From positions 1 to 59,150 of the IMG/VR virus record IMGVR_UViG_3300043015_001357: 59,150 nt of DNA; one strand, given 5' to 3'. This DNA is from a virus. Its lineage: Duplodnaviria > Caudoviricetes. A program made the position numbers and the translations under genes. The first letter of the stretch is position 1, and each line of letters begins with the position of its first letter. The notes under the pieces were generated by a model. It did not search any database and had not been told where the DNA came from. It worked only from the letters and a program-made list of their open reading frames with translations. Shown piece by piece: positions 6,172-43,889 of the stretch.

Positions 6172-6643
6172 CTCTTGCTCTTATACATTCGGCTTGAATC
6201 TCAAAGCGATGCTCCACTTGACCAAACAGAAGTCTCGGTTCAATCAGTTTTACAATCTCGTAATATACTTCACCATATCTTACGAAGTCGCCTTCTCTTA
6301 CATAGAGGTCTTGGTCTTCCGTTAAACGTCTTTTGTGAAAGTTAACCTTTATCTTAGTTGCTTTGTCGATAGCAACGTTGTCCATGAATGATGTCTCAAC
6401 CCCTTGGAACTCAACGAGAGCATGAACTCTCAAAGGAGGAAGAAATGTCTTCTCAATAGCTTCTCCATATAGAGGGTGATAAGCTGTAGCTTCAAGGTCA
6501 ATAGGGAAATACAGAACCTGCTGGCCAACAACACGCTCAATGATCTCGTCATTGACTTGTTTTACAAGATCACGTTCCTTTTCTCCAAAGAACATTGGAG
6601 GAGGAGGGGATGCTGGTTTTTTCCATTTGTTATCTTCTGACAC
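6149..6643 (-). CDS. Neck/head completion protein (gp14-like)
   Basis: EIIERVVGQQVLYFPID, HPLYGEA, VREGDFVRYGEVYYEI; synteny. Confidence 0.7.
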   Translation of the reverse strand: MSEDNKWKKPASPPPPMFFGEKERDLVKQVNDEIIERVVGQQVLYFPIDLEATAYHPLYGEAIEKTFLPPLRVHALVEFQGVETSFMDNVAIDKATKIKVNFHKRRLTEDQDLYVREGDFVRYGEVYYEIVKLIEPRLLFGQVEHRFEIQAECIRARDGVFNAE

Positions 6644-9104
6644 GGACTCTTATCCTCTTTTTATTTTCTGTTATGTTTTGTTGTGGCTTTAGCATTTTCG
6701 CTAAATACTTTTCAAGTTCCATTTGCATTCTCTCTGCAATGTCATCAATGCTTGCGTTATTCTTGAGAAAGTCTCCTGTTTTTTCTAGAATTTCTTTTGA
6801 GTAATCACTGTACATGCTAACACCAGCCTTAAATTCAATCTCATCATATTCTTCGATCTGTTCTGGAGTTACGTCTCCTCGCTCTGCATGCATTATTACA
6901 ATGTTTGGGTCTGTTTCTTTGTTCCATGCATCTTGACTTAAAGCTAACTTACCAGCTAGTTCATCATTTCCAAAAATTGTGTTGAAGAACTTAGCCATAA
7001 GTTCATAAGCGTTTTGTTGCATATTTTCCGGAATCTTTTCTTTGATCTCGGAAATATCGACGCTGCTTTCATCTCGGAAAGCAATGAAAGAAATATATTC
7101 TCCGCCAAAATAATCGTGCGCCTCTTCTTCTCTTTCGTCTTCGGGCCACCAAGAATCTTCAGGAAGACCATAGTCTTTGAGAACGTTTTGAATTACTTGT
7201 CTTTCTGATTCAATGACACCAAATTCTTCTAGTTTGTACTCTATCAATTGAATGGGGCCGTTATCATAATAATAATCAAAAGCATCAAATTTTTTCATAA
7301 TGTCTGGTAATGCCCCTTCAAGACCTCCTAGGTAAGCTGTCTCATCATCTAAGTCATAGCCTTGATAAACAATTTTAATCATCCAACTACCTTCATCATT
7401 TCTTTCAACAAATATATTGTTTGATTTTGGTAATTGATAATAATCATAAAATTCCCAATCAACAACCTCTGTAACAACAGAGTTAATTTCAGAACCATTA
7501 GCGCCTGGTGCGTTGATTTTAAACTTAACAATCAAATCCCACACATATGTGATTTCTCCGTCATATCCTTCGGAAGTGTCCCAATCAAAGGAAATAAATC
7601 CACCAGTATGTTCGTCAAAAATCTCATTTAATCTTCGCCTAATCATTTCCTCAGAACTTCCTCCGATTGAAGCCATTAAAGCTTCTTCGACATCGGGTTC
7701 GTATCTAACAGAGGTTCCTTGGAGAACAACGTCTCTATTGAACTTGCGGAACAACATAGGCAAAGTTTGAGCAACAGAGTGACCTGTGTCTTGATAACTT
7801 CCGCCATATCTTGTGAAGTTTGATAGAAATATTGTTGGCTTACCAAGATCTTGTGATCCTTGCTTGATAATCTCTTTAACTTCTTTTTCTTGCGCTTTGG
7901 AGACTCTATTATTGACAGCGTCTAAAAACCCCGGAACTTGTGGGCCGTAAATTTTTCCTTGTGGTACCGCAAGCCTTATTGGTTCTGAGTTTTCGTCTTT
8001 ATGAAACGCGACATTTTTGATTCTAATTCTAGAAGTTGGAACTAGTAAGTGAGCAGTTGCATCTCGTCGCATTTGATCAAAAAATATTTCTTGATCTCCT
8101 TCAACATCTAATGACTCTTGTGTTGGAGGAAACATTATGAAGTTCTTTGCCGGAACAATGTAGGCAATCATTCCATTGCCATACGCTTCAGAAAGAGCGC
8201 ATTTATTATAGTCATCAAAACCCATTTCACCTTTCATACTTGGAAGAGAATGACAAGATCTGATGCTTTGGTGATCGGACATTCTAAAGACATCAACAGG
8301 ATGGCGAGAATAGATTATGTAATTTCTCTCAAGGTATTGATCCATGTTTCTAACAAGATCATCAAAAGATTCAATAGCATATTTTGCAAAGTTTTCAAAA
8401 GATTCAAAATCGATTCTACTTTTTGTGAAGAATTCCTTCATTGTTAAGGAGGTAGATGTACCAAGCCAATAATCTTGAGCATCATAAAATTTCATAACCT
8501 TTCTGTATTCGTCTGCTGTGTGTTTTACAACTGGGTCACTAATTTTTGCTGGTAAAGAATATTTAGCTTCAGCAGGAAGTTTATCTAGTTTGCCTATTTT
8601 TGAGAGTTTTGCGTATCTTTTGGCTGCTTCAAAATGTTCTGCTCCGGCTTCTCTTTGAATTTTGTTTCTACTATTGTTAACAAAGTTGATAATGCCACCT
8701 AAAACCTTTGGTAAATTAAGAGTGATTGTTTTTCTAGAAACGCCTTGGTTTCCTTTTCCATCAATGAAATGAGAGACTTTTGTTTTGGAGCAAAGAATTT
8801 TTCCGCCTTTGACTTTACCAGCTAGTTTGCCTTTTGTTTCATCATGATATTCTAGATTGGATGCTGGATCTACTTGCCACCCAAAGGCATTGAGAGCAGA
8901 AATTGTGTTAGCTAGAGGTGTCTCTTTTTTGAGACCAGAAACAGGTTCGATAATTCTATAGGAATTTCCAAAGATGTTTCCAAAAGGTAATTCACTAACA
9001 GGGATTTCCAAAGCATCATTAAGGTATTCAATTTCTTGTTCTGTTGCTTCTTTGAGTTCTTGTTCTTTTAAAAATTTATTCCAATTTTCTAATATTAATT
9101 TCAT
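6630..9104 (-). CDS. Large hypothetical protein with capsid-targeting-like leader, inserted between neck genes
   Basis: 824 aa; N-terminus MKLILENWNKFLKEQELKE; core SRHPVDVFRMSD-SCHS; acidic C-terminal half. Confidence 0.8.
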   Translation of the reverse strand: MKLILENWNKFLKEQELKEATEQEIEYLNDALEIPVSELPFGNIFGNSYRIIEPVSGLKKETPLANTISALNAFGWQVDPASNLEYHDETKGKLAGKVKGGKILCSKTKVSHFIDGKGNQGVSRKTITLNLPKVLGGIINFVNNSRNKIQREAGAEHFEAAKRYAKLSKIGKLDKLPAEAKYSLPAKISDPVVKHTADEYRKVMKFYDAQDYWLGTSTSLTMKEFFTKSRIDFESFENFAKYAIESFDDLVRNMDQYLERNYIIYSRHPVDVFRMSDHQSIRSCHSLPSMKGEMGFDDYNKCALSEAYGNGMIAYIVPAKNFIMFPPTQESLDVEGDQEIFFDQMRRDATAHLLVPTSRIRIKNVAFHKDENSEPIRLAVPQGKIYGPQVPGFLDAVNNRVSKAQEKEVKEIIKQGSQDLGKPTIFLSNFTRYGGSYQDTGHSVAQTLPMLFRKFNRDVVLQGTSVRYEPDVEEALMASIGGSSEEMIRRRLNEIFDEHTGGFISFDWDTSEGYDGEITYVWDLIVKFKINAPGANGSEINSVVTEVVDWEFYDYYQLPKSNNIFVERNDEGSWMIKIVYQGYDLDDETAYLGGLEGALPDIMKKFDAFDYYYDNGPIQLIEYKLEEFGVIESERQVIQNVLKDYGLPEDSWWPEDEREEEAHDYFGGEYISFIAFRDESSVDISEIKEKIPENMQQNAYELMAKFFNTIFGNDELAGKLALSQDAWNKETDPNIVIMHAERGDVTPEQIEEYDEIEFKAGVSMYSDYSKEILEKTGDFLKNNASIDDIAERMQMELEKYLAKMLKPQQNITENKKRIRVRVRR

Positions 9105-9107
9105 TTC

Positions 9108-10729: not shown

Positions 10730-11210
10730 AGATCTCTTTTTTTGCTGCCATTAGTTGTTGGATTTTTTCTTGATAATTACATCCGCCGAATTGCTCAATA
10801 AGTTCTTCTGTGGTTGGTTGGATTTTAACAACTTCATATGCTGCTTCTTCATCTGGAAAATCATAGCTAGGGTCTTCAAAATCCAGCATTCCCCAAGATT
10901 CTATATCTAACCAGCCCTTTTCGCCTTCGGTATCCCAATAGGTTCCCTCCGGCTCATAATACACTGCGACATGGCCGATCATTCTACCGTGGTTTTTCCA
11001 CATGTACTTGTTTGCGGCCACAACAAGGGTTCCTTCGCCATCAAATAAAACATTATTAATAGCCATGGCCGCCTCGGCACAAGCCCCGCCAAATCCCTTT
11101 ATATTGGCTTTTTCTAATATTTTAAATACGATATCTAAATCTTTCTGTGTTTTTGGTGCACCCTGATATTCGGCTAAGTATTTTCGCCAACTTTCAATTA
11201 TTACTTTCAT
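10710..11210 (-). CDS. Hypothetical protein with capsid-targeting-like leader; possible Cys-His-Asp (papain/transglutaminase-like) enzyme
   Basis: MKVIIESWRKYLAE leader; GGACAEAA, GHVAV and YWD motifs. Confidence 0.7.
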   Translation of the reverse strand: MKVIIESWRKYLAEYQGAPKTQKDLDIVFKILEKANIKGFGGACAEAAMAINNVLFDGEGTLVVAANKYMWKNHGRMIGHVAVYYEPEGTYWDTEGEKGWLDIESWGMLDFEDPSYDFPDEEAAYEVVKIQPTTEELIEQFGGCNYQEKIQQLMAAKKEIFGESGA

Positions 11211-11215
11211 ACAAA

Positions 11216-11311
11216 TAATTAGTTTAAAAAAAAGAAAACCCCCAACCGTAATGGAAGGGGGCTCTTATGGTCTAATCTAAGCTATAGATTAGGACGCTCC
11301 GGACTCTCCGA
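11216..11311. repeat. Direct repeat copy 2 (capsid gene end + terminator + promoter motif)
   Basis: Near-identical to 10639-10729. Confidence 0.9.
11226..11262 (-). terminator. Intrinsic terminator after the major capsid gene
   Basis: CCCCC...GGGGG stem followed by a T-rich tail. Confidence 0.8.
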
Positions 11312-13037
11312 GAAGGCCACGGACGATTACAAGACCGTACATGTCAGGGCGTACCATTTTCTTCGCATAGCGAGTCATGACACCCTTACGAGGTACGAAA
11401 TCCTCTGGGCCAAAGATTGTAGGAGTAGTTTGGAGCGGTACATACGGAGCATATACATATCCAGACTCAAGGAAGCTATTTCCTTTACGTCCTACAAGAA
11501 CCACATTACGTGGGAAGTAAGGATCAACGATAACGTCGAACTTACGGCTGAGAGATCCAACCTTAACAGCACCGATATCACCCTTGTCAGCATCAGCAGT
11601 TACGTTTGCACGGAATCCGCTAGTGAATTCAAGAATGTTAGCAACTTCAGGAGAAACGATTACGAAGTTCGCTCCACCACGAAGTGTCTTACGGTGGATT
11701 TGAGCAGAAACGTCATTGATAGTTTCAATGAGAGTCTCATACCATTCGCTAACTGTACCGGTGAAATCTGGAGCAGCAGCAGATGCACCAATCTCAGCAC
11801 CAGTAGTGCGGTTAACAAAAAGACCAGGTGAACGCGCCCAGTAGTAAGTTCCAGCAGTAGCGCCTTTGATGAGGTCTTCAAGGATCTCACGGTCGATTTC
11901 AAGAGCAATTTGCTCAGAAAGGATAGAAGTCAATTCTACTTCAGCATCCAAGTTGTGGTAAGCGTTCAAGTCTTGTCCAAGTTCTGGAGTCCACTTTGCT
12001 TTCAACTTCTTGGTCATTGCTGTGATAGCAATTGAATCAACCTTGATATCGATTTCAGGGATGTTTTCGTTTCCTTCAAGTCCCCAATAATCTGTACCCT
12101 TGATAGCACCAAGAGCAAGTCCTGAAGTTGTAAGATTATCAGTTTGTGTCCACTGAATTTCGTTACCAGCATCATTCATAGCAGCAATCATGTCAGTTGA
12201 CAATTGTGCTGGAGTACCAGAAGAAGCACCATCAGTATCAGTACCAACGAAAACCAACTTGATACGCTCGTTAGCTGCATCATAGCTGCTCAAACGACGG
12301 ATAAGACGACCGTGATATCCGTTAGAACCAGAAGCAATACCGTTTCCAATAGAAGAAGAAACGTTGATAGCAACAAGGTTCTTAAGGTTTACTTGGTCAA
12401 GACCGCTAGCAAGCACAGAAACAACAGCGAACTCAGTAGAGCCAGAAACGAAGTCTGGATCAAAACGAACAAGTTTGTCGTTAGAACCACCAAATGTGTC
12501 TTTACCACCATCTTGTGCAGTCAAAGTTACAGCATTAGTAGCAGAAGAACCAGTTGGAGAAGAATAACCGTTGTTCATTCCGTAAGGACCAACATCACGG
12601 TCAGCGTCGATACCATCAAGCGTAACACCTTCTGAGATTTCAGAAGCAAGTTTATCAGTACCATACAAAGATTGTCCTTGTGCATTTCCAAGACGCTCAC
12701 GGTCAAAAGAAAAATCAAGGAAGAAAATGAGACCAGATGGAAGGCTCATTGGCTGAACAGATACAAGATCGTTAGCGATAAGTCCGGCGAATACACGACG
12801 AACGATTGGGAATGCAACAGCAGCGAAACCTTCTACGTCTCCACCAGCCATTGTGTTAGATTCGCGAAGAAGTTCCTTCGCTTGGTTTTCAAGCAAACGA
12901 GCCATAGTTGACTTCTGATGCTCATTTTGAAGACCTTCAAGTAGACCGGTTTTTCCCCACTTGGAAAGAAGAGCAGAGCCTTCCTTCTTCATGTCACGGT
13001 TTACGATGCCTTCTGTAAGTGTTTCAATAATAGACAT
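11289..13037 (-). CDS. gp23: Major capsid protein (T4 gp23 family)
   Basis: FPIVRRVF, VSVQPMSLPSGLIFFLDF, KLKAKWTPELGQDLNAYHNLDAEVELTSILSEQIALEIDREI, GYVYAPYVPL, PRKGVMTRY. Confidence 0.97.
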   Translation of the reverse strand: MSIIETLTEGIVNRDMKKEGSALLSKWGKTGLLEGLQNEHQKSTMARLLENQAKELLRESNTMAGGDVEGFAAVAFPIVRRVFAGLIANDLVSVQPMSLPSGLIFFLDFSFDRERLGNAQGQSLYGTDKLASEISEGVTLDGIDADRDVGPYGMNNGYSSPTGSSATNAVTLTAQDGGKDTFGGSNDKLVRFDPDFVSGSTEFAVVSVLASGLDQVNLKNLVAINVSSSIGNGIASGSNGYHGRLIRRLSSYDAANERIKLVFVGTDTDGASSGTPAQLSTDMIAAMNDAGNEIQWTQTDNLTTSGLALGAIKGTDYWGLEGNENIPEIDIKVDSIAITAMTKKLKAKWTPELGQDLNAYHNLDAEVELTSILSEQIALEIDREILEDLIKGATAGTYYWARSPGLFVNRTTGAEIGASAAAPDFTGTVSEWYETLIETINDVSAQIHRKTLRGGANFVIVSPEVANILEFTSGFRANVTADADKGDIGAVKVGSLSRKFDVIVDPYFPRNVVLVGRKGNSFLESGYVYAPYVPLQTTPTIFGPEDFVPRKGVMTRYAKKMVRPDMYGLVIVRGLLGESGAS

Positions 13038-13059: not shown

Positions 13060-14274
13060 TTATTTAATGCCCGCAAGTTTTTTCATCTGCTCTGCAAATG
13101 TATGCTCGGAAGATTCATTAACTTGCTGTTTTTTGCGTGGAAGAATTCCAGATAAGTTAGATTTTCTCTGTACAGACTCGCTTAGGGTTCTGGGTGACTT
13201 GTTTTCAGTACCAGAAGTTACCGTAGCATTTAGAGCCTCGTGAAGATTCTTAGCTTCTTCGGGAGTTCTTGCCTTGGCGATGGCTTCAACAATTTTATTT
13301 TTTTGTCGCTCATTCAAGGAGGCATCGCCTAAAGTTTTGTTAGAATAAATCAATTTAGCGTTGGAAAGAAGTGTCTCGTTGAGTTTTTGAGAAAGCTTCT
13401 CAACAGCGTCTTTATATTGCTTATTCTTCAATTTAAATCGTTTGAGGATTTCTTTAAGGTCCTCATTTTCCTTTGCCTTTTCTTCGGCTGCTTCTTTAGC
13501 TTTTTGCATCTCCATTTCATATTGGAGAGTTGGTTCGAATGTTTCATGATATCCAGTCTTTTCTTGACCCATATCTACGGTCAATTCTTCTTCGATGACT
13601 TCAGTATCATCACTATACATTTCGTTCATAAGATTCATGATCTCATTTACAAGAGCATCTTCATCTTCTTCTTTTTCTTCTTGGAGTTCAAGCCCTAGAT
13701 CTAATTCATCATCACCACCTTGTTCAGGAGCTTGTTCTCCGCCAAGGTCAAGGTCACCAAGCAATTCTTCTGGACCTTCAAGTGAAGACTTCGGAGCATC
13801 CGCTTCACCAGAAAGCTCTGCTTTGATGGCATCTAAATCTAAAACAAATTCATCAGATGGAACTTCCATAGTCATTTCAACAGAACGGTCATCATTCATG
13901 GGATTACCAGCAAATGGAACCCCTTCAATATTACCAGCACCCATTTCAGAACCACCACCCATGGCCATTCCTTCTTCTTCTTGAAGCAAATCTTCTTCTG
14001 TAAGATCTGAAATTTCTGATTCAGAAACAACAAATGGTTTTGTTGATTCGTTTTGCAGTGTATATTTGCCACCCTCAACTTCCATTACATTGTAGATTTG
14101 TCCTTCATATTTTACTTGTTTGTGAGAAGGTCTAGAATCTGATTCCAAAAGACTTTCAACTGCATCTTTAATCTGTGGTGCAAATTTCTCAATAAGTGCT
14201 TGCTCTGCGTTTTTGAGAGCAGCTTCACGCAACGCCTGTGCGTCGACGATAGCTTGTTCTAACATTGAAGACAT
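13060..14274 (-). CDS. Prohead core scaffold protein (gp22-like)
   Basis: Acidic coiled coil directly upstream of the capsid gene; many LxE sites; LSNAKLIYSNK; MKKLAGIK end. Confidence 0.8.
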   Translation of the reverse strand: MSSMLEQAIVDAQALREAALKNAEQALIEKFAPQIKDAVESLLESDSRPSHKQVKYEGQIYNVMEVEGGKYTLQNESTKPFVVSESEISDLTEEDLLQEEEGMAMGGGSEMGAGNIEGVPFAGNPMNDDRSVEMTMEVPSDEFVLDLDAIKAELSGEADAPKSSLEGPEELLGDLDLGGEQAPEQGGDDELDLGLELQEEKEEDEDALVNEIMNLMNEMYSDDTEVIEEELTVDMGQEKTGYHETFEPTLQYEMEMQKAKEAAEEKAKENEDLKEILKRFKLKNKQYKDAVEKLSQKLNETLLSNAKLIYSNKTLGDASLNERQKNKIVEAIAKARTPEEAKNLHEALNATVTSGTENKSPRTLSESVQRKSNLSGILPRKKQQVNESSEHTFAEQMKKLAGIK

Positions 14275-25760: not shown

Positions 25761-25976
25761 TTAATTAGTGTTTTTTTTATCTTTTTGTTCTTTTTTCTTT
25801 CGACGAGCAATAGCACGTTGCTTAGCACGTCTTTTAACATCTGATTTCTTTGTGTGATGTCTTCTCTCTCTTACTTCTTCCAAAAGTCCGAGTTTCTTGA
25901 TCTTTCTTGTGAAACGTTTGATCAAACGATCACCGCTTTCGTTTCTACGCGGTTTAATTGTTAGTCTTGAAGCCAT
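25761..25976 (-). CDS. rpsU: Ribosomal protein bS21 (phage-encoded)
   Basis: 71 aa, very basic; NESGDRLIKRFTRKIKKLGLLEEVRERRHHTKKSDVKRR matches the bS21 pattern. Confidence 0.88.
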   Translation of the reverse strand: MASRLTIKPRRNESGDRLIKRFTRKIKKLGLLEEVRERRHHTKKSDVKRRAKQRAIARRKKKEQKDKKNTN

Positions 25977-26386
25977 TAATCCTTTCCTGATAGTTTCTGC
26001 CAGATCTTTGCTGAATGACCTGAGAAAATGTTTGATATATCAACTCCGGGGTCATTTGGAGCAACACTATCAAGTGGTCCTTGTCCATGACTAGATCTTG
26101 GAGCAGGTGTAGGTGTTGTGCCTTCGAATAGATCAACACCATTATAAGCATCTTTACCTATTGAATCAAGGAGTTGACGCTTTCTCATTTTTGCTTCTTT
26201 CAATTTTCTCTCACGTTCAGCGAAGTCTTGTTTGGGTTGTTTGGTCTCAACAATTCGTTCAGAACCAGAGGTGCCTTTCATAACTTCGCTTATAATAGTA
26301 GAAAGAGCGCCCTCTTCAAAGATCACCTCTTTGATGCACTCTTTAATTAGCGGCTTTAGCATATTTTTCAATTCGTTCTTTTTCAT
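25976..26386 (-). CDS. Hypothetical protein
   Basis: MKKNELKNMLKPLIKECIKEVIFEE; GVDLFEGT; DPGVDIS. Confidence 0.75.
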   Translation of the reverse strand: MKKNELKNMLKPLIKECIKEVIFEEGALSTIISEVMKGTSGSERIVETKQPKQDFAERERKLKEAKMRKRQLLDSIGKDAYNGVDLFEGTTPTPAPRSSHGQGPLDSVAPNDPGVDISNIFSGHSAKIWQKLSGKD

Positions 26387-26950
26387 TTATTCTCCAAAGG
26401 GTAGTGGCATTTGTTCGGCTTCAAATTGAGCACCTTTAACTAGTGATGTATACTTACCGTCTTCTGAGGCATGAAAGTATACTTGTTCTGCACTAACTAG
26501 TTTTTTTCCATCTATGTGAAAGAATTTGTTCTCTCCAAATGGATTGAACCCAAAAGGCACAAAGTCTTCAAGATCTTGTCCTTCCTTGGTCTCAATCACT
26601 GTACCAGAAACACCAGCAACCAAAGTTCTGTGTCCGGTCTGTGCTACTTTTTCTGCACCAGCTTCACTAATTTGAAACACTATTGGGCTTCCAAGACGAA
26701 TACAATTAGTGTAATAGAGAGGGGAACCTTTTCTGTTTCCTTTATTGTTAACTCCGTAGAGACCAATCATACCGTTCTTGCCTTGATTTCTATGAGTTCT
26801 ATTTGTATGACTCCATAATCTTTCACCTATTAGGTCGTCTCCATCTTTATAGTTCTCAACCGGTTTTAGCGAGTCATAATACTGCTCGTCTATCACCGCT
26901 TGCAATTCTTCTTTAACAATATTCTTTAGTTGTTCTGATGTGATTTCCAT
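26387..26950 (-). CDS. Hypothetical protein with IxKEEL-type leader
   Basis: MEITSEQLKNIVKEELQAVIDE; TAATG-coupled to the protease gene. Confidence 0.75.
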   Translation of the reverse strand: MEITSEQLKNIVKEELQAVIDEQYYDSLKPVENYKDGDDLIGERLWSHTNRTHRNQGKNGMIGLYGVNNKGNRKGSPLYYTNCIRLGSPIVFQISEAGAEKVAQTGHRTLVAGVSGTVIETKEGQDLEDFVPFGFNPFGENKFFHIDGKKLVSAEQVYFHASEDGKYTSLVKGAQFEAEQMPLPFGE

Positions 26951-27564
26951 TAGTCTTCCAATATCTTCTTAAATAAATCATCAACAATGTTTTGTTTTGC
27001 TTCGTTGATTTTATTCTCGTACATTCCACGTTGAGATTTAGGATATACAAAAGCATTTGGTGTTGATGGCTCGGAAACAATATCAAAACAGATGAGTTCA
27101 AAGTCTTCTTGAACAACAATTCCGCCACCCATTGATTCTTTTACAGAGCCAAGCCCACGAGAAGATATTCCAAGTTTAACACCAGCATTGATAAGATCTT
27201 TAAGGATACGACCAGAAGGCGTATCAAGGACTTTGATCTTACCCATAACATCCTTACCTTCCCACCATACATCTGTAATCATATGGGAGACATTCTTAAG
27301 GTTGATAACAGAATCATCAGGGTGATCAAGTTCACCACAGGCACGATTATCTTGAACAATCTTCTTGTAATTGTCAACTTCACGCTTTAAAACCTTAAAA
27401 GGATAAGATCTTCCGTTTCCGTTTTTCTTATCAGCAGTTTGAATACGACCGGACAAATATAGTGTGCCGTTTTCAACTTCTCTCTTTTCTCTCTCAGAAA
27501 GAAGATCTCGGCAAATTCCATCTTTGCAAAGTTCGTTAAATTCTGTTAATAGTTGTTTTGGCAT
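26950..27564 (-). CDS. gp21: Prohead core protease (T4 gp21 family)
   Basis: KNGNGRSYP, GELDHP, NVSH, LDTPSGRIL, LGISSRGLGS, FDIVSEPSTPNAF. Confidence 0.95.
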   Translation of the reverse strand: MPKQLLTEFNELCKDGICRDLLSEREKREVENGTLYLSGRIQTADKKNGNGRSYPFKVLKREVDNYKKIVQDNRACGELDHPDDSVINLKNVSHMITDVWWEGKDVMGKIKVLDTPSGRILKDLINAGVKLGISSRGLGSVKESMGGGIVVQEDFELICFDIVSEPSTPNAFVYPKSQRGMYENKINEAKQNIVDDLFKKILED

Positions 27565-28319
27565 TATGGTTCCTCTGCTATTTTTTTTAATAATTCTGTA
27601 TTATCAATAGATACAATTTCATCAAAACCCTCTTCCACAGAGGGGGGCTCATATCTAGAAATCATACTTTTAATCAATTTTAAATCAATTGTTTTAGATT
27701 TTCCCTGTTTTTTTGCTTCTTGATTTCTTTTCTCTGCAACTGCTGCGACAATTTCCGGCGATGGATATTTAAAGTCTACTGCGATTTTCTTATACTCGTC
27801 CTCACGTCCTTCAATAGCTCCAAGAGCACCTTTTCGTGCACCAGCGCTCATATTGGTCATATCTACTACAATATCTAAACCACTATCCTTAGCAGCATTA
27901 AAATTAGTCATATGTTCAGAATGCACCTCACCATTCGCTTTCATAACCTTTGAATAAACCTGTTTTGGAGCACCTGGCCATTTCATATATGAAGGAGCAG
28001 GTTCCACAAACCCATACTTAGAATGATGAGGTATTTTTTGTTTTGTTCCATCTTCAAGCTCTATCTCTTTCTCTTCGTTCGGAGGTATTAATGATGGGTC
28101 CACAAACATATCATCGTATGTCCATCCATAACTTTCAGCAATTTTTTCTGCTATAACATCTCTATTAATAATATATGGGTTGGTATCACCAAATGTACTT
28201 CTAATCCATGATGATTTGCCAACAGATGGCGGACCGACAAGAACAAAAATTTTCTTCATACCTTCCGTTTCTTCTTTTAAAAATCTTCTCCAAGATTCCA
28301 TAATCATTTTTGTTTTCAC
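27564..28319 (-). CDS. P-loop kinase (AAA_33/PNK-like) with capsid-targeting-like leader
   Basis: GTG start after GGAG; leader MIMESWRRFLKEE; Walker A GPPSVGKS; IVVDMTN...R. Confidence 0.8.
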   Translation of the reverse strand: MKTKMIMESWRRFLKEETEGMKKIFVLVGPPSVGKSSWIRSTFGDTNPYIINRDVIAEKIAESYGWTYDDMFVDPSLIPPNEEKEIELEDGTKQKIPHHSKYGFVEPAPSYMKWPGAPKQVYSKVMKANGEVHSEHMTNFNAAKDSGLDIVVDMTNMSAGARKGALGAIEGREDEYKKIAVDFKYPSPEIVAAVAEKRNQEAKKQGKSKTIDLKLIKSMISRYEPPSVEEGFDEIVSIDNTELLKKIAEEP

Positions 28320-28329
28320 TAAATTCTCC

Positions 28330-28355
28330 AAAAAATAAGCGGGCGCTACCCGCTC
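28330..28355 (-). terminator. GC-rich hairpin with T-tail (probable terminator)
   Basis: AGCGGG-TAGCG-CCCGCT followed by TATTTTTT. Confidence 0.6.
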
Positions 28356-30043: not shown

Positions 30044-30855
30044 TATAATTCCTCCACAAGATCTTGGATATAAAACAGCTTCTTAACCATTTTCTCATTC
30101 AATGGTTTTTGGGTAAAATCTTCCAATATTTCCGAGACTTTTTCAAGTTTTTGACGTTTTTCTTGAGAAAAGGTATCAACACTGCTTGAGAGTTTTTCGG
30201 TGAGTTTTTGTTTCAAACTTCCGACTTCTTCGTTAACAAAAGTTTTTAGCCCAAGACCATTGTCTGAGAACGAAACAATATAATTTGTTAGAAGCTTCTT
30301 TTGGTTCTCTTTGAGAGAGTTCTTATAAGTTTCATTAAATTTATTGACAAATGTCTTGTATGTGAGATTATCAATATGCTTCATTTCCTTCTCTTGTGTT
30401 TCGGAAGGAACAAGCAAGGATTTGACTTTTGTTTCAACAATAAGACGAGATTTAGCATGTGGAATATTATCTTGGAACCAAGCGCCAACTGTTGCAATAT
30501 CTTTATAGTTTGGAACAAAGTTTTTGAATACATCCGATCCTAGTTGTTGATTTATCTGTGTTATAACTTTTGTTTGAGCATTGAAAACAGATTTACGATC
30601 AATGGCATTGTAGTCTTTCTTTGTCTCAACAAGAAAACGATCTGTAAAGTCTTTAGTCATCTTATCTTTGTTTTCCAAGATAGACTTGTAGAGTTCTAAG
30701 TCTCGTTGCAATAGAGACCCCTTTACAAAGTTCTCTTTGATAATTTTTACAATCTTTCCTTTTCTTTCTTCTTGTTGTCTTACAATCGCTTTTGTTAGTT
30801 CTTTTACAAGAGATTCGTAAAGAAAAGCGGTATTTCTTTTCTTATTGTGCTTCAT
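30043..30855 (-). CDS. Hypothetical protein downstream of the portal gene
   Basis: MKHNKKRNTAFLYESL; helical; overlaps the portal stop. Confidence 0.8.
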   Translation of the reverse strand: MKHNKKRNTAFLYESLVKELTKAIVRQQEERKGKIVKIIKENFVKGSLLQRDLELYKSILENKDKMTKDFTDRFLVETKKDYNAIDRKSVFNAQTKVITQINQQLGSDVFKNFVPNYKDIATVGAWFQDNIPHAKSRLIVETKVKSLLVPSETQEKEMKHIDNLTYKTFVNKFNETYKNSLKENQKKLLTNYIVSFSDNGLGLKTFVNEEVGSLKQKLTEKLSSSVDTFSQEKRQKLEKVSEILEDFTQKPLNEKMVKKLFYIQDLVEEL

Positions 30856-32776
30856 CTTCTTTTACCTTCTTTAGTAGACTCTCAATCAAGTTATCAACTT
30901 GTTTTGATGTTTTAAATAGTTTCTCTTCTTCTGTTTCGTTATCTTCTGTAATTCCACGAGCAAGAGAATCTAAGCCACCAAAACCGGACTTACCTTGAAA
31001 AGTTGTTCTATATGTGTTTCCATATTCTCCGGTGGCTTGATTTTTCATCTGTTTACTTCTACCACCTTTTGAATATGATGTTTGATGACGCTTGTATTTG
31101 CCACGCTTATATGATGGCTCGTCATCTCGTTTAGCGGGTGGTTCAGCCAAGAGAACATCGTCATTTTGATCACCCCCTTCGGCACCAGGGCTCTCGTCCC
31201 CAGCAGCCTGTTCTCCGGCATCACCACCTAAATCTAAATCTCCACCAGTGTCTCCACCTAGGTCAAGATCACCACCTCCAAGATCTCCTAGGTCACCGCC
31301 ACCGCCTTCAGCAGGTGGTTGACCAGCAGCTTCAAGACTAGCAGCCATTTTTCTATCGTAGAACATTTCACGCTGCATACGAACAAACTCTTCATCAGAA
31401 AGTCCGAAGAGGTTCTCAGCAACCCAACGACGAGAGAAATAACCTTCAGTTGCGTTTCCAGCAACAGAAAATTTCTTGTCCCAATGTTCAAGCTCTTGAA
31501 GTTCAGCAATCTTTGATGGATTGTTTAACTGTAATTTAAACCCAAGAAGATCATCATTGCGGAAACCCATGGTGAATAGGTGAATGATTCCAATCTTCTC
31601 AAGTTCAGCAATAACAACTCGTTGTAGTCTTTGAATTGTTCTTGCGAATCTAATATCTTTTTGTGCAAGTGTTGTTTTATCTTCTTGTGCGCCTTCTCCC
31701 ATTGTAAGGTAAGACTGTGGTATCTTAAGTGCGGAGAATAGCTTGTCTCTGAGATACTTAACATCTTCAATCGTAGCAGTCATAGCTCCACCGGGTAGGT
31801 TCTGTATGTCTGTATTTGAGGTTCCACGAATAGGAATGTAATAATCTTCTTCAATTGATAGTGGGTTGTATCTTAAATCAAGTCGACCTGTTGATGGGTC
31901 CACGACTTGATGACGCTTCATTTGAGTCATAACTTTTTGCATGTATTGTTCGACATCTTGTGGAGGAATGTTGCCGACATCAATTTTGAATACGCGTCTC
32001 TCTGGAGCACGTACGATTCGGTATGCCATCATAGCGTCTTCTAGAAGAGTAAGTTGTCTCCAAATTCTTCTTGCTGGTTCCAATACAGATGTTCCATAAG
32101 GAGCATGTTTGTCGTTTCCTAGAATACGGAAGTGAGCCATTTGCCAATTTTCTAAAGTCATGCCGCCAGAATTCCACTGAAACTGTACATAGTTGGGGTT
32201 AGACTCATCTTCGCCTTCTAAGCGCTCAATTTCTTGAGGAGGAAGGCCGATAGCGGCTCTTACACCCATACCCTCTTCGATATCTAAGTAAAGAAAGAGA
32301 TCTCCGTACTTACACATTGTTCTACACCAACCAAACAGATTGTGTTCAATATTAAGAACATTATGATAAAGATTATCAAGGATTGTCTTGATCTCGTCAT
32401 TTGGACATTTAATTCTCAACATTGGTTGCAAAGATGAATGAGTTGTCATTTCATCTGCGTAAATATCTAGGGATGATGCACATTCTGGTGTATATTCCAT
32501 CTGATCAAAGTCAACGTATCGTTCTGCTCTGTTTCGGTTTGATATCATGTTAACTGTCATGATATTCATTGGGTTGTATTCTTGCTTCTTAAATTGTTTA
32601 CCAGAAGCAGAAGTGAAACGAGAAGCATAAGCATCTAAGTGTCGTCTTCTTAGAGCGCGACCTTGTTGGGTTCTTCTTTGAGTAATCGGACCAGAAAATA
32701 ATCTTGTTAATGAACGAAAAAGACCATTCTCCGGATTATAGGGGTTACGCCCTAGGTTCTTCTTTCTATTAGCCAT
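30842..32776 (-). CDS. gp20: Portal protein (T4 gp20 family)
   Basis: PYGTSVLEPARRIWRQLTLLEDAMMAYRIVRAPERRVFKIDVGNIPP, EEDYYIP, LFSALKIP. Confidence 0.95.
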   Translation of the reverse strand: MANRKKNLGRNPYNPENGLFRSLTRLFSGPITQRRTQQGRALRRRHLDAYASRFTSASGKQFKKQEYNPMNIMTVNMISNRNRAERYVDFDQMEYTPECASSLDIYADEMTTHSSLQPMLRIKCPNDEIKTILDNLYHNVLNIEHNLFGWCRTMCKYGDLFLYLDIEEGMGVRAAIGLPPQEIERLEGEDESNPNYVQFQWNSGGMTLENWQMAHFRILGNDKHAPYGTSVLEPARRIWRQLTLLEDAMMAYRIVRAPERRVFKIDVGNIPPQDVEQYMQKVMTQMKRHQVVDPSTGRLDLRYNPLSIEEDYYIPIRGTSNTDIQNLPGGAMTATIEDVKYLRDKLFSALKIPQSYLTMGEGAQEDKTTLAQKDIRFARTIQRLQRVVIAELEKIGIIHLFTMGFRNDDLLGFKLQLNNPSKIAELQELEHWDKKFSVAGNATEGYFSRRWVAENLFGLSDEEFVRMQREMFYDRKMAASLEAAGQPPAEGGGGDLGDLGGGDLDLGGDTGGDLDLGGDAGEQAAGDESPGAEGGDQNDDVLLAEPPAKRDDEPSYKRGKYKRHQTSYSKGGRSKQMKNQATGEYGNTYRTTFQGKSGFGGLDSLARGITEDNETEEEKLFKTSKQVDNLIESLLKKVKEDEAQ

Positions 32777-32779: not shown

Positions 32780-34363
32780 TTATCCTTTGAATATCCATGC
32801 AAAATTTCTTGCTTTATTTAATTCTTCTTTATATTTAGTTTCGAAATCAGCATTATACCCATCTTGCCCTTTTATCGTTGTGTTCATAATGCTCTTTTTC
32901 ATATACATTCCGTCAATCATAGCTTTCCGATATTCAAGATCTTTTTGTGAAACTTCAAGCGCTGTGTCTCTTACCCAACACATAATAGAGAGACACATGA
33001 CGATATCGTCGTGATAAGATCTCATTGCTTCTGGCTTTCCGTTATTCCAAATAAAAGTCCTGAACTCATCGAAGGCTCTTGCTGATGGTATCTTGATAAT
33101 TCTATTGCGGATAAACTCTTCAAGTTTTGCTACAATAAGAGGTCGGGTCTTTGTTGAAGTTGTAAAACCACCAACCGCATTGTTCATAAACTCGCCTTGA
33201 GATGCATCAACAAATTCATGGGTTCCTTTTACGGAATAATAAAGATTCTCATATCCCATGTCTTTAAGTTTCTCAAATACAGAAATACCAATACCGTTAT
33301 TCTCAACAACTAGAAGGCATTTCCCATATTCCATTCCTGCTGAATATAGCATTTGTGAATACATATCAAGCGAAGGTTTGCCTTGATACTCGGCAACTAT
33401 CTCCATCTTTCCTACATCTAATACATGAAATACAGAGTTGTCAGCGCCATCGCCTCTAGCAACATCGGCAACGAGAAGGTAATGACCTCCATCTCGGTAC
33501 TTCTCCCATATCCAAAAATTTCTATCATATCCTGTCCTATATATTGGTTCTTTAATTTGTTCTTGCAACCAAGCAATATCCTCTGGATGTATAACTGTAT
33601 CACCAGAAGTATTGAAGTTGCATTCTAATTCTTGTGCAATTTGACGACGAGACATATTTTTTGTCTCTTTCTTAAACCATGCTTGGTCTCTTTCGGGATG
33701 AACGTCCCACGGAAGATTAACCGGTTTGAAATCCGATTCTCCATTATCCGCTGCTACATAAGTCTTATGAAACCAGTTACCAACACCATTCGGAGTTGAT
33801 AGTGCAATACAGCGTCCACCTGTTGATAGTGTGGGATAAAGACCAGTCCATAGATCGTCAAGACCATCGATATGGGCAGCCTCGTCAATAATAAGAAGTG
33901 ACAATGCTTCCGAACGACCAGCGTCTCCAGAAGTTGATGCGGCTTTGATTTGTGATCCGTTTGAAAGTTCAAACGATGTTCTGTTGTCAACTTTAATCTT
34001 AGCGACCTTCATCCACTCCGGAAGATATTGCATTATGTTCTTAACTTTCTTTACAAGGTTTGCTGCGGTTTGAAATTTTGTGGCTATCACAAGTATGTTT
34101 TTATCTCTGTGGAATAACATGAACCAAACAGCATAAGCAGCGGATATCGTTGAAATACCAAGCTGTCTTGCTTTTAGAATAACTGTAAAACGGAAATCGT
34201 TAAAATCATTTATCAAGTCGTTTTGATAAGGGTAGGTCTTGAACGGAATAAGTCCGTGCATCGGATGCGAAATACGACAATAATTATTTATGAAGTATTC
34301 GGGATCTTTGCCGGACTTAACAATTTCCTTTACGATTTCTTTCTTTGAAAGAGAGAAAGCCAT
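32780..34363 (-). CDS. terL: Terminase large subunit
   Basis: LKARQLGIST, LLIIDEAAH, LSTPNG, ADVARGDGAD, VVENN, HDDIVM. Confidence 0.95.
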   Translation of the reverse strand: MAFSLSKKEIVKEIVKSGKDPEYFINNYCRISHPMHGLIPFKTYPYQNDLINDFNDFRFTVILKARQLGISTISAAYAVWFMLFHRDKNILVIATKFQTAANLVKKVKNIMQYLPEWMKVAKIKVDNRTSFELSNGSQIKAASTSGDAGRSEALSLLIIDEAAHIDGLDDLWTGLYPTLSTGGRCIALSTPNGVGNWFHKTYVAADNGESDFKPVNLPWDVHPERDQAWFKKETKNMSRRQIAQELECNFNTSGDTVIHPEDIAWLQEQIKEPIYRTGYDRNFWIWEKYRDGGHYLLVADVARGDGADNSVFHVLDVGKMEIVAEYQGKPSLDMYSQMLYSAGMEYGKCLLVVENNGIGISVFEKLKDMGYENLYYSVKGTHEFVDASQGEFMNNAVGGFTTSTKTRPLIVAKLEEFIRNRIIKIPSARAFDEFRTFIWNNGKPEAMRSYHDDIVMCLSIMCWVRDTALEVSQKDLEYRKAMIDGMYMKKSIMNTTIKGQDGYNADFETKYKEELNKARNFAWIFKG

Positions 34364-34943: not shown

Positions 34944-35330
34944 TTAATATTCCAAAAGCTCTTCTTCTAGACCATCTAAATAATCTTCTAAAACATGTTT
35001 TTCTCTTGGAGTTTTAGCATTTTTAATATCTTCTATAGTTTTATCTATTTCATACTCAATTGCTGCCTTTGGTCGCTTACCATATGGCATAGCAAACATT
35101 TGTTCTCTTGTTTTAAAATCTTGTGCTCCTGCCGCATCAATCTTGTCTTGGTCTACACCATCAAACATAAGTGCTAATTCTTTTGCTTGTTTGTAACCCT
35201 CTGGTCCTGTGCTTGCAATTTTAAGCAGTTTATCTAATTGTTCAGGAGTTATAGACATTTTTTGAGACTCTTTTAAATGCTCTAGTTCTTCACGGATAAG
35301 TTTTTTAAGCCTTTGTGTTGTTATTTTCAT
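34944..35330 (-). CDS. Hypothetical protein with IxKEEL-type leader
   Basis: MKITTQRLKKLIREELEHLKE. Confidence 0.7.
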   Translation of the reverse strand: MKITTQRLKKLIREELEHLKESQKMSITPEQLDKLLKIASTGPEGYKQAKELALMFDGVDQDKIDAAGAQDFKTREQMFAMPYGKRPKAAIEYEIDKTIEDIKNAKTPREKHVLEDYLDGLEEELLEY

Positions 35331-35697: not shown

Positions 35698-36774
35698 TTA
35701 AACCTCAATAATAGCATTTGGGTCTGTTCTCAACTGAACGACCATCTGTTCGATCTGTTTTGGTGGTAAAGCACGAAGTGCCTTGTACACACTTCTCAAT
35801 TGTCTTTTTTCTATTTGGCCTTTGTTGAGCATGTGGTTTACAATTTCAACATGCATTTTCTTAATGTCTTTATCGGAGAACTCGTCATAGGCTGCTCCAC
35901 CTTGCTCTAGAATTTCTTCAACTTTTCTATAGATTGTAAAAAATACATCAACCAACTGTTTGGTATCATCATCAGCAGTGTGGAGTTGAATTCGATTTGG
36001 GTCTCCAAAAACATTCATAAGTTGTTGAAGTTTCATTGACATGTATCTTTTTCCTTTCTCGGACATAACATACATAGCGTTTGCTTGTTCGTCTCCTTTA
36101 TCAGCAGCGTCTATCATAGCTTTCTTGAATAAGGTTCTAGAAAACAAAACTGTATCAAAAATATCAATGTCCGCAAATGCCGTGGAATCAATTCCATATT
36201 TATCACACAATTCAATGATTCTTCTTCTATCAAAGCTCATAATGTTGTGACCAACAGACACTTTGTTTTCTTGAGAATTAAACCAATCAACAAATTTTCT
36301 TAATGCTTGTTCTTCTTTCATTTCTTCTTCGCCTTGTTCGAAATCGTCATAATGAGTGTAGGCTAACATATCATCAACAGTCACGGGAAATTCTTGCCCT
36401 TTTTCTTTCATTTTCTGCTTTTTCATCGATAACTCAGAATTAGGATCTTTAAGTTCTTCTCGTTCCATTGCTTGTTGTTCAAGTGTCTCTGGGTTGAGAG
36501 AACATTTGATTACAATGCTGTCGTGATAATCAGATGGAGGAGGTTTTGAGATGTCATCAATTTTATAAGAGAAAGCAGCAAATTGCGTGATTTGTCCGTC
36601 AAATCCAATTGTCTCTAAATCCCAAAACACCCAAGTTTTTCCATTTAGTTCGTCTTTCATAAATTTTAAAGCAGCATTTGGTGAAATAAAACCAAGATTG
36701 CTTAGGTCTTCGTCTAATACGGCTTCAAGCTCTTCTTTGATAATTCTTCTTATAGTTTGTTGATCTATTCTCAT
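35698..36774 (-). CDS. DEDDh 3'-5' exonuclease (DnaQ-like) with IxKEEL-type leader
   Basis: ExoI WDLET, ExoII GHNIMSFD, ExoIII HTADDD; leader MRIDQQTIRRIIKEELEAVLDE. Confidence 0.85.
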   Translation of the reverse strand: MRIDQQTIRRIIKEELEAVLDEDLSNLGFISPNAALKFMKDELNGKTWVFWDLETIGFDGQITQFAAFSYKIDDISKPPPSDYHDSIVIKCSLNPETLEQQAMEREELKDPNSELSMKKQKMKEKGQEFPVTVDDMLAYTHYDDFEQGEEEMKEEQALRKFVDWFNSQENKVSVGHNIMSFDRRRIIELCDKYGIDSTAFADIDIFDTVLFSRTLFKKAMIDAADKGDEQANAMYVMSEKGKRYMSMKLQQLMNVFGDPNRIQLHTADDDTKQLVDVFFTIYRKVEEILEQGGAAYDEFSDKDIKKMHVEIVNHMLNKGQIEKRQLRSVYKALRALPPKQIEQMVVQLRTDPNAIIEV

Positions 36775-37163: not shown

Positions 37164-37855
37164 ATTTCCTCCATCTCTAATTGTCCGTTATCATAGAGTT
37201 CATCCATTATTTTGGTACCTCTCTTTATATAACCATAGGACACACTTTGTTCATGCCACTTTGCTGCTTTTTCAGGATAATCAATAGAAGCCATTCTTGC
37301 ATGAGATGGATTGTGCTTTTTCCAATCTCCTTTTCCAACTGCATAATAAACTGATGTATCTTGTGTACAGTCATCACTTTTATCATCTGGAGTCAACTGT
37401 TTAAATGGAGCCATTCTTTTGCTTCCATAAATCCACTCTAATGTTTGATCACTGATGTCAAGCCTAACTTTTTCAACATCAGAACGATTATTTAAATAAA
37501 AGTCCCAAACGTTTTTTGCATCCCCAGAAACCATACCTCTATCTGAGGTTAGAGTAGCATTTCTAGAACTTGTAAGATACTCCATCATGACATCGTATAA
37601 TAACGGCCCCCAACCTTTAGTGGCCTCTGCGCTTGTTATTTCATAGCTATTTGCTATACAATCTTGTGGTTTCATTTTTTCTGCTACAAGTATACCTTCG
37701 ATGCTATCATCTAAATTATCTCTGTGTTGGTAACTTATCTCAACAAAATCTCCATATGCTTCAAGTTTAATATAGAAATCTTCTGGTAAATCAGCAGGAG
37801 ACATCGCTGCTTCTTTTATTATTTGTTTGTTTTTTCTTACAATTCTAATCTTCAT
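37160..37855 (-). CDS. GNAT-like protein, paralog of 28728-29441, with KIRI-type leader
   Basis: ATKGWGPLLYDVMME, LTSDR, AKNVW, TPDDKSDDC; leader MKIRIVRKNKQIIKE. Confidence 0.65.
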   Translation of the reverse strand: MKIRIVRKNKQIIKEAAMSPADLPEDFYIKLEAYGDFVEISYQHRDNLDDSIEGILVAEKMKPQDCIANSYEITSAEATKGWGPLLYDVMMEYLTSSRNATLTSDRGMVSGDAKNVWDFYLNNRSDVEKVRLDISDQTLEWIYGSKRMAPFKQLTPDDKSDDCTQDTSVYYAVGKGDWKKHNPSHARMASIDYPEKAAKWHEQSVSYGYIKRGTKIMDELYDNGQLEMEEM

Positions 37856-43414: not shown

Positions 43415-43443
43415 AATATAACATGTTAACGGAACATTGTCAA
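43415..43443 (-). promoter_or_regulatory. Sigma70-type promoter
   Basis: TTGACA-17nt-TATTAT with extended TG. Confidence 0.75.
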
Positions 43444-43472
43444 GAAAATATTACTATTTTTTACACTAAAGC

Positions 43473-43889
43473 TCAATCTTTGATTTCTATGCTTTTGTTT
43501 TTTTGAACTAATTTTTTAGCCCACTCTAGATCCTTTTGGTTAGCATTTTTTAAAAAGTTATCGATAGTGCGTAAAAGACCCTGTGCTTCTTGGTTCAAGC
43601 TTTCTTTCTTTTCTGTTTCAGGTGTTTTATTTGCTATTTGTAAATCTTCCAAAGCTTTCGAATATATAATACTTTTATCAACATCCTTTGAATTTTTTAT
43701 TCCTTCTTTGGCAAATGCCGTTGCTAATTCTACAGTATCAGCAGAATATCCTTCAACACCTGCTTTAGCGGTCTTGCTTCCACCAAACATACTTCCAAGA
43801 GCCAATGCCCCACCGAGAACATAATCTCTCAATGCTTCATCTAATTGTTCTTGTCTTTTTTTGTTTTCTTTTAAGATTCTAATTTTCAT
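43473..43889 (-). CDS. Putative internal head protein with KIRI-type leader and Gly/Ala hydrophobic segment
   Basis: ATG at 43889 after GGAGAGG; MKIRILKENKKRQEQLDE-ALRDYVLGGALALGSMFGG. Confidence 0.7.
   Translation of the reverse strand: MKIRILKENKKRQEQLDEALRDYVLGGALALGSMFGGSKTAKAGVEGYSADTVELATAFAKEGIKNSKDVDKSIIYSKALEDLQIANKTPETEKKESLNQEAQGLLRTIDNFLKNANQKDLEWAKKLVQKNKSIEIKD

Follow-up and report, generated by a model that had tools for sequence, protein, structure and literature searches.

We analysed a 59,150-base stretch of viral DNA (the whole of IMG/VR record IMGVR_UViG_3300043015_001357, hereafter the window), in which the minus strand holds all plausible genes, and found that a set of otherwise unrelated genes begins with one of a few short, recurring leader peptides. 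Four leaders are of a W type (MKxxxExWxKFLxE), three or four are of a KEEL type (MKITxxxLKxIIKEELxxVLxE) and two begin with MKIRI (KIRI type). These tags are portable, interchangeable between homologous bodies, selected as peptides and confined to a single clade of phages whose heads are of the T4 type, and they end at a conserved protease-type motif. We consider it likely that the W and KEEL leaders, and probably the KIRI leaders as well, are capsid-targeting propeptides in the style of phage T4, and about ten tagged proteins of the window are probably packed into the virus head.

Leaders at the starts of window genes

A preliminary description of this DNA had listed nine leaders, and examination of the minus strand located all nine of them at the gene starts given there. 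One start needed refinement: the leader assigned to 28319 is present, but 28319 itself is a GTG lying four codons upstream of the ATG at 28307, with which MIMESWRRFLKE begins. Both codons are possible starts, since a GGAG lies 6 nucleotides (nt) before the GTG. To the nine we added a KEEL-like leader at 26386.

Searching the six frames of the window with loose motifs tied the leaders to gene starts. The motif W[RNK][RK][FY][LVI] occurs four times, and its Trp is always residue 6-8 of a minus-strand gene; [IVL][KR]EE[LI] also occurs four times, three copies occupying residues 13-17 of the genes starting at 26950, 35330 and 36774 and the fourth lying in a non-gene frame of the plus strand; and both copies of MKIRI[LV][KR] in the window are gene starts. 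Comparison of 25-residue segments of the called genes by ungapped BLOSUM62 scoring, with a threshold of 35, revealed 9 pairs at or above the threshold among 1378 N-terminal pairs vs none among 990 pairs of internal segments. Some of the N-terminal pairs may be true paralogs: at a threshold of 33, the tail-tube, MAYKF and 46136/51775 pairs grouped in this way. Hidden Markov models (HMMs) of the leaders, a check suggested in the preliminary description, were run on 539 called proteins from the window and two related complete genomes and gave matches at E < 1e-3 in 9 (W) and 8 (KEEL) proteins, all best-scoring ones being N-terminal. These matches start at residue 1-5, with the exception of one KEEL match aligned from residue 10; the leader of the 166-amino-acid (aa) protein, for instance, was aligned over residues 1-14 with E 9.3e-5.

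The bodies behind the leaders differ in kind (Table 1). The two GNAT-like proteins, the P-loop kinase and the DEDDh exonuclease that had been proposed among them were recognised by Pfam, Foldseek, PADLOC or homology, whereas a proposed Cys-His-Asp enzyme was not; for this enzyme and for the lysis genes mentioned with it, Pfam, PHROGs and PADLOC gave no match. The GNAT body of gene 28728-29441 scores 23 bits in Pfam against a cut-off of 20.7, its top Foldseek matches are all GNAT acetyltransferases (best E 1.3e-3), and the KIRI-type gene 37160-37855 encodes a second member of the same family. The sole PADLOC match among the window bodies is the DEDDh model on the exonuclease. A W-leader kinase was found also in IMG/VR locus L102. 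Searching the 824-aa protein against PDB sequences returned nothing credible (best E 0.0031, an Rpb6 chain over 75 residues), and the 166-aa protein fell into viral hypothetical clusters only in the ESM Atlas. Three orthologs of the 824-aa protein (L056, L105 and the G010 gene at 146372) retain the W leader while their bodies are 25-36% identical. An ortholog of the 138-aa KIRI protein appears to exist at L364, judged by eye from the common N-terminal sequence.

Spread, exchange and selection of the leaders

The leaders recur widely in viral metagenome sequence and keep their place at the start of the gene. A DNA pattern for ExWRKFLKE, not anchored to a start, matched 63 unique places in IMG/VR, of which 58 are leader-type, lying 5-13 residues after the start of an open reading frame (ORF; 55 with ATG, 3 with GTG or similar) and taking the form MKLLxExWRKFLKE; the other five are internal or lack a start. 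The anchored pattern MKxxxExWRKFL, with the following residues left free, matched 108 loci, and the 80 fetched yielded 70 distinct products. For the KEEL type, LKxIIKEEL matched at least 133 IMG/VR loci, and the 80 fetched yielded 87 distinct contexts, in 70 of which a Met or Val stands exactly seven residues upstream. Two of these 70 and one further match are terminase N-termini, which leaves 68 of 87 as leader-type, with the consensus MKITKxQLKQIIKEELExVLxE.

Cellular genomes gave a different picture. The W pattern was run over 185,579 prokaryote genomes and matched 100 stretches. Of 80 that were examined, 79 are not of the leader type: most of these lie inside two cellular protein families, and three (L370, L387 and L425) have a nearby Met and no leader form. 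The sole leader-type match, L443, comes from a metagenome-assembled genome (MAG; G040) labelled Candidatus Pelagibacter, and we place it on a phage contig because the MAG also carries two S77 protease genes and a gp23-type capsid gene. The tags are thus virus-specific. Either the phage contig was mis-binned into this MAG, or its presence there hints at the host. Among phage records, tblastn of the 824-aa protein against 50,697 entries gave no match, and neither did tblastn of a 24-aa consensus-like KEEL leader. Five records were scanned directly (immuto, RM378, Mel-JY01, S-SSM7 and LR756508): IIKEE[LIM] is present only in the uncultured LR756508, and the only match of the W-type pattern, in RM378, is not in a gene.

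These counts bear on whether the likeness of the leaders could be a matter of chance or composition, that is, of N-terminal helices rich in Lys, Glu and Leu in an AT-rich genome. For W and KEEL this is refuted by the lack of internal pairs at score 35, by the position of the non-anchored matches at ORF starts (58 of 63 and 68 of 87) with fixed spacing to the Met, and by the 79 of 80 examined prokaryote matches that are not leader-type. What is left concerns the KIRI type, where the window pair shares five residues and a scan with MKIRIxKE was heterogeneous; the KEEL-like N-terminus of the terminase could be cited in the same sense. Taken over all leaders, we give this explanation next to no weight.

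The tags prove portable and interchangeable, as the preliminary description had supposed, in that unrelated bodies stand under one leader and homologous bodies under different leaders. With the leader removed, 106 distinct W proteins fell into 45 BLAST clusters and 62 KEEL proteins into 58, the median cargo length being 237 aa for W and 104.5 aa for KEEL. Pfam domains were detected in 5 of 41 W-body representatives (HD, NUDIX + DUF5661, DUF2608 and Zeta_toxin/AAA_33). Exchange of leaders on homologous bodies was seen repeatedly. The 231-aa KIRI body of the window is 40% identical to the W-leader proteins L104 and L041 (E 2e-18), the KEEL exonuclease of the window has a match (E 1.3e-4) in a G002 protein whose leader is MNDIKWQQFLTE, and the KEEL protein L270 is 60% identical to the W proteins L145 and L146 (E 3e-51). 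A NUDIX body carries a leader in L012 and stands without one in G010, and a long W leader, MKLLFESWRKFLKE, and a short one, MNKKWKNFINE, precede bodies that are 49% identical. Arrays of tagged genes stand between conserved genes, at variable loci, in the complete relatives: a tandem run of five W genes occupies 90.7-94.5 kb of G010, and in G002 genes of the W, KEEL and KIRI-like types are neighbours at 131.9-139.8 kb.

An 840-aa homolog of the 824-aa protein (G010 146372-148894, plus strand) has a short W leader, and its C-terminal end reads ...VMNSWRKFLNG just before the stop codon; this end may be the remnant of the leader of a former downstream gene.

At the DNA level the leaders of the window have no more than 22-30 of 42 nt (W) or 36-39 of 66 nt (KEEL) in common, which is 52-71% overall, and the sequence upstream of them differs from gene to gene. 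In the set of 70 distinct IMG/VR W leaders, the conserved positions make use of all synonymous codons (six each for Arg9 and Leu12), conservation is lacking in the 30 nt upstream (top base frequency per column 0.30-0.56), and positions 3-5 are conserved by amino-acid class (Leu, Ile, Met, Phe). This pattern of codons and residues indicates that selection acts on the leader peptide.

The same comparison speaks to a reading in which the shared gene starts are recombination handles in the DNA for the shuffling of cassettes, similar to promoter-early stem-loop (PeSL) elements, and the peptide is functionless. The tandem arrays of leader genes at variable loci between conserved genes are what such handles would produce, but the low nucleotide identity of the window leaders, the use of all synonymous codons, the unconserved upstream DNA and the conservation by amino-acid class at positions 3-5 all disagree with it, and we regard it as very improbable. 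PeSL elements are conserved non-coding DNA comprising a promoter and a stem-loop. PeSL cassettes of T4-type phages and the leader genes described here have in common that variable genes are arrayed between conserved genes, suggesting frequent exchange, whereas the shared element is DNA in the former and a peptide, with no conservation of the upstream DNA, in the latter. PeSL-type regulatory cassettes as such were likewise rejected, no conserved DNA having been detected upstream of the leaders in the window or of the 70 IMG/VR leaders.

Structure prediction set the leaders off from their bodies. In the AF2 (AlphaFold2) model of the GNAT protein, residues 2-15 form a helix followed by coil, with a predicted local distance difference test (pLDDT) score of ~74 vs 88-96 for the body; in the exonuclease model, a helix spanning residues 5-19 (pLDDT 67 and 45 vs more than 90 for the body), again followed by coil, stands apart from the confident body. 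Signal peptides of the Sec/Tat type, in which a basic N-region precedes a hydrophobic core of about 10 or more residues, were considered and rejected: charged and hydrophobic residues alternate in the leaders (e.g. MKLILENWNKFLKE), and there is no long hydrophobic run.

Likeness to T4 capsid-targeting propeptides and rival explanations

The preliminary description held that the leaders end in a T4-type (L/I)xE, and alignments agree with this. Among the 70 anchored W products, residue 13 varies, 62 have a Glu as residue 14, and beyond position 14 conservation collapses. The GNAT family keeps the W core in 73 of 77 homologs and the [LIVM]xE end in 71 of those 73, and I4, W8, F11 and E15 are nearly invariant in its alignment (A2). 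The exonuclease family keeps the KEEL leader in 36 of 39 homologs, all 36 with [LIVM]xE, and in its alignment (A3) E22 is invariant, like the DEDDh catalytic residues.

A gp21 homolog, the protease that would cut at such a motif, had also been proposed for the window and is indeed encoded there: the protein matches the S77 family, and the catalytic His and Ser, at T4 positions 85 and 140, are conserved in the alignment with T4. Two known T4 substrates retain the motif where the sequences align. At the N-terminus of the protease the window has LLTE where T4 has LLIE, and in the capsid protein LLRE/S of the window aligns with the T4 cleavage site FLTE/A. Of the records that bear a leader pattern, 12 of 20 with W and 12 of 19 with KEEL were found to encode an S77 protease. 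Counting only those with a completeness of 90% or more, the figures are 6 of 6 and 2 of 3; the single such record without S77 holds only an internal, non-leader match, so that S77 accompanies the leaders in every record of this completeness.

Comparison with T4 revealed a common arrangement of key residues. The capsid-targeting sequence (CTS) of T4, which is carried by IPI, IPII and IPIII, which are internal proteins, and by the Alt propeptide and is removed by gp21, reads MKTYQEFIAE/A in IPII and IPIII (slash, cleavage site; taken from the T4 record). W8, F11, L12 and E14 of the W leaders have the spacing of Y4, F7, I8 and E10 of the CTS, and L8, I11, I12 and E14 of the KEEL leaders have it as well, often with a second [LIVM]xE at about residue 22. 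According to the accessible text of PMC9026906, gp21 cleaves behind L/I-X-E, ten N-terminal residues of IPIII are enough for loading, and within the CTS residues 4 and 7 matter most for targeting, residues 8 and 10 for processing. The internal proteins of T-even phages are a diverse set having only the CTS in common (PMC3012670, accessible text). The leaders described here resemble the CTS in being N-terminal, short and amphipathic, in the kind of residue at three positions before the Glu (aromatic or hydrophobic at -6, Phe or Ile at -3, Leu or Ile at -2), in ending in (L/I)xE before a variable body, and in standing on unrelated proteins, often in small gene arrays; and T4 and the window both encode an S77 protease of the gp21 type, a capsid protein of the gp23 type and a portal of the gp20 type. 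They differ from it in length (14-22 residues vs 10), in sequence, which is unrelated apart from the four-position pattern, and in number, with at least two and perhaps three classes per genome that are swapped between homologous bodies, unlike in T4. The bodies here form about 40 (W) and 58 (KEEL) families vs a handful in T4, are mostly acidic and include recognisable enzymes, whereas the T4 internal proteins are basic, and their clade is one of uncultured marine phages of the Far-T4 type.

If the leaders act as the CTS does, the short amphipathic N-terminal helix would give the protein an affinity for the scaffolding core while the prohead assembles, the gp21-type protease would cut after the Glu of the terminal (L/I)xE, and the cut would free the mature protein inside the head, from which it could exit with the DNA at infection. 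From the T4 precedent we infer binding to the core, cleavage, presence in the virion, ejection and any role in host takeover or counter-defence.

The bodies and the genomic positions of the leader genes lend themselves to another reading, in which the leader is a docking helix for a destination other than the capsid (a membrane, a complex of replication or nucleotide metabolism, or a host protein) and (L/I)xE belongs to the helix and is not cut. Bodies recognised by Pfam are HD, NUDIX, HAD-like and kinase, to which the window adds GNAT and the DEDDh exonuclease; they are mostly acidic, unlike the T4 internal proteins; the terminase, which is not packaged, has a KEEL-like helix; and many leader genes lie outside the head module, the array of G010 being located between RuvC and primase. 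A docking helix would nevertheless leave it unexplained why conservation ends exactly at the Glu, why four key residues are spaced as in the T4 CTS, why no leaders turned up outside phages that have a head and protease of the T4 type, and why several leader genes directly adjoin the genes of protease, capsid and portal. We judge this reading unlikely.

Entry into the prohead need not mean delivery, and the tagged proteins could instead be parts of the core or scaffold, like T4 gp67, gp68 and gp22, that are degraded and expelled. The diversity of the bodies (58 clusters for 62 KEEL and 45 for 106 W proteins) and their folded enzyme domains misfit a structural role, and their presence or absence differs between close relatives. 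It is true that KEEL proteins are small and often acidic, that a 136-aa KEEL-like gene is kept just downstream of the protease in three genomes (adjoining it in G002 and one gene further in G010 and the window), that T4 gp22 itself begins with the CTS-like MLKEQLIAEA, and that core proteins are cut to fragments that exit the head (PMC9026906, accessible text). On balance we hold a role as core components to be distinctly unlikely.

Several points weigh against the propeptide reading that we prefer. Many bodies belong to enzyme families (NUDIX, HD, kinase) whose members are ordinarily expected to act in the cytoplasm. The motif [LI]xE is common in proteins rich in Lys, Glu and Leu, and at positions 17-24 [LIVM]xE was found in only 41 of 70 KEEL leaders vs 29 of 269 control windows; all KEEL leaders have I-K-E at 12-14 by construction of the search pattern. 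The N-terminus of the large terminase (34363, MAFSLSKKEIVKEIV...) clusters with the KEEL type, and given that the terminase is not packaged, similarity to the KEEL helix alone is no mark of cargo. In all 24 tested leader-bearing records with S77, the capsid protein is 45-71% identical to that of the window, so common descent confounds the association of leader and protease, which does not count as independent evidence and may only reflect one clade. The likeness to the T4 CTS amounts to a four-position pattern in a 10-residue peptide, with no demonstrable homology. Acidic bodies make up 72% of W and 61% of KEEL proteins vs 57% of background proteins, and the T4 internal proteins, unlike these, are basic (accessible text of PMC9026906). 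Cultured phages with these exact leaders were not found in the phage searches described above. The KIRI class is weakly supported and much weaker than W and KEEL, consisting of two genes and one swap; the anchored MKIRIxKE scan gave 35 heterogeneous loci and no coherent family, and for this reason we do not claim KIRI as a family beyond the window and the swap evidence.

A wider form of the propeptide reading can be put forward tentatively, as possible though short of likely: an abundant, uncultured marine clade of T4-type phages would use two or three interchangeable tags, recognisable in the sequence by itself, to pack about a hundred unrelated families, NUDIX, HD, kinases, GNAT and DEDDh among them, for injection as an arsenal for takeover or counter-defence, and the leaders may mimic helices of the phage's own shell and scaffold. 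Speculatively, the W leader resembles the gp23 propeptide, LLxKWxK..LLE, and the KEEL leader resembles the start of the scaffold, LKQAIAEA, although the registers are not exact. Cargo-loading peptides of encapsulins offer a functional analogy only: a short portable tag sends unrelated enzymes into a shell of the HK97 fold, but these peptides usually stand at the C-terminus, make direct contact with the shell protein and are not cut off by a protease, and no virus or DNA is involved. In the giant phages phiKZ, 201phi2-1 and SPN3US, many head-internal and ejected proteins are also cut after Glu by a T4-related protease, a diverged gp21 homolog (PMC9026906, accessible text); there the propeptides are long, share no portable tag and have the motif (S/A/G)-x-E, whereas the tag described here is short and recurring and ends in L/I-x-E.

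The literature consulted, which included the accessible text of a paper on Far-T4 genomics (PMC4360716) and lay mostly outside subscription journals and supplements, describes no such leaders beyond T-even and giant phages. In T-even phages the concept is already known, and the possibility of its wider use is voiced in the accessible text of PMC9026906. New here are the longer tags, the several interchangeable classes, the many more and different bodies and the distant uncultured clade. If the propeptide reading is correct, genome sequence would directly show which proteins a very common group of ocean phages packages and probably injects, yielding a list of candidate early-acting effectors, mostly of unknown family. 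It would also provide a natural example of cargo exchange between tags, with new portable peptides for loading foreign proteins into heads, and a mechanism demonstrated to date in T-even coliphages alone would be extended to a branch that is distant and uncultured. It has long been suggested that the CTS serves T4-like phages as a general evolutionary device (PMC9026906, accessible text), and this proposal would then become directly testable.

The head-gene module and neighbouring features

Comparison of the gp23-type capsid protein with cultured phages placed the contig at a distance from all of them. The nearest cultured relatives are Flavobacterium phage immuto (45% identity over 79% of the query), Microcystis phage Mel-JY01 (46% identity over 63% of the query) and Rhodothermus phage RM378 (34% identity); given these distant relatives, we concluded that the contig is a fragment of an uncultured myophage of the Far-T4 type. 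Pfam and PHROGs identify, besides the genes listed in Table 1, a tail sheath, two tail-tube paralogs, a baseplate hub, a primase and a RuvC-like resolvase. Several tagged genes are immediate neighbours of head genes: the 166-aa W-leader gene is the next gene after the major capsid protein, the AAA_33 kinase gene lies directly upstream of the protease gene, and the start of the Phage_L5_gp82-family gene overlaps the protease stop.

Table 1. Leaders and selected genes of the window (positions are those of the window)
Feature	Position	Gene	Strand	Identification or note
W-type leader MKLILENWNKFLKE of 824-aa protein	9063..9104	6630-9104	-	without family match
W-type leader MKVIIESWRKYLAE of 166-aa protein	11169..11210	10710-11210	-	
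W-type leader (M)KTKMIMESWRRFLKE of AAA_33 P-loop kinase	28272..28319	27564-28319 (GTG) or 27564-28307 (ATG)	-	Pfam
W-type leader MKKILNEWRKFVLNE of GNAT-like protein, 237 aa	29397..29441	28728-29441	-	
KEEL-type leader MEITSEQLKNIVKEELQAVIDE of 187-aa Phage_L5_gp82-family protein	26885..26950	26387-26950	-	Pfam
KEEL-type leader MKITTQRLKKLIREELEHLKE of 128-aa protein	35268..35330	34944-35330	-	
KEEL-type leader MRIDQQTIRRIIKEELEAVLDE of DEDDh/RNase_T exonuclease	36709..36774	35698-36774	-	Pfam, PADLOC
KEEL-like N-terminus MKKNELKNMLKPLIKECIKEVIFEE of 136-aa protein	26312..26386	25976-26386	-	
KIRI-type leader MKIRIVRKNKQIIKE of 231-aa GNAT-family protein	37811..37855	37160-37855	-	
KIRI-type leader MKIRILKENKKRQEQLDE of 138-aa protein	43836..43889	43473-43889	-	
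Major capsid protein, gp23 type	11289..13037		-	Pfam Gp23 E 1.3e-74; also PHROGs
Scaffold-like 404-aa protein, gp22 position	13060..14274		-	directly upstream of capsid gene
Ribosomal protein S21	25761..25976		-	Pfam E 6.6e-11
Prohead protease, gp21 type (Peptidase_S77)	26950..27564		-	Pfam E 5.1e-34; PHROG 207 E 1.7e-61
Portal protein, gp20 type	30842..32776		-	Pfam Portal_T4 E 7.2e-77
Large terminase	32780..34363		-	Pfam/PHROGs
SbcD/Mre11-type phosphoesterase + SbcC/Rad50-type ATPase fusion, 1049 aa	38489..41638		-	Pfam/PHROGs

The 404-aa protein is without a family match, and its putative scaffold role is therefore assigned from its position and its N-terminus, MLEQAIVDAQALRE, which is invariant and resembles MLKEQLIAEAQ of T4 gp22. 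It has 2713 relatives at E < 1e-5 in a metagenome protein collection. Co-folding of this protein (alignment A1) with residues 1-40 of the GNAT family (A2) gave a score of 0.00, which, as controls were not run, is uninformative either way.

Other observations concern the surroundings of the leader genes. The KEEL-like helix of the terminase reads MAFSLSKKEIVKEIVKSG in the window and ...NLKDIIKEEFAKC... in its relatives (IMG/VR loci L196, L221 and L238). Directly upstream of the W-tagged kinase gene, inside the block of genes that runs from portal to protease, lies a strong terminator-like hairpin (28337-28355, minus strand) of 8 pairs followed by a T run. The gene for ribosomal protein S21 is located within the head-gene module, two genes downstream of the prohead protease. 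In phage immuto (L001) we noted gene starts that are W-like or KEEL-like in a looser form, one of which comes right after the protease gene of this phage, and its neighbouring genes 10730-11731 and 11731-12030 share another N-terminus, MxxNFxLKxFLxENKLT....

Promoter scans did not single out the leader genes. The T4-type late promoter TATAAATA was rejected as a candidate: it has 4 copies on the coding strand vs 5.5 in shuffles, none near a leader gene, and one copy lies upstream of the SbcCD fusion gene. The sigma-70 scan was uninformative, given that 59 sites were found vs 58 expected. Before the SbcD-SbcC fusion gene there is a perfect 12/12 sigma-70 consensus with a TG extension (41694-41667), and near-consensus sites stand before RuvC and primase as well.

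Three proteins of the structural module (14336-15946, 17647-18315 and 18408-20186, all minus strand) have in common an N-terminus of the form MAYK(F/Y)xxG..., and the 592-aa one among them matches a structural, fibre-like PHROG family. This start looks like a shared N-terminal attachment domain of paralogs, distinct from the short leaders.

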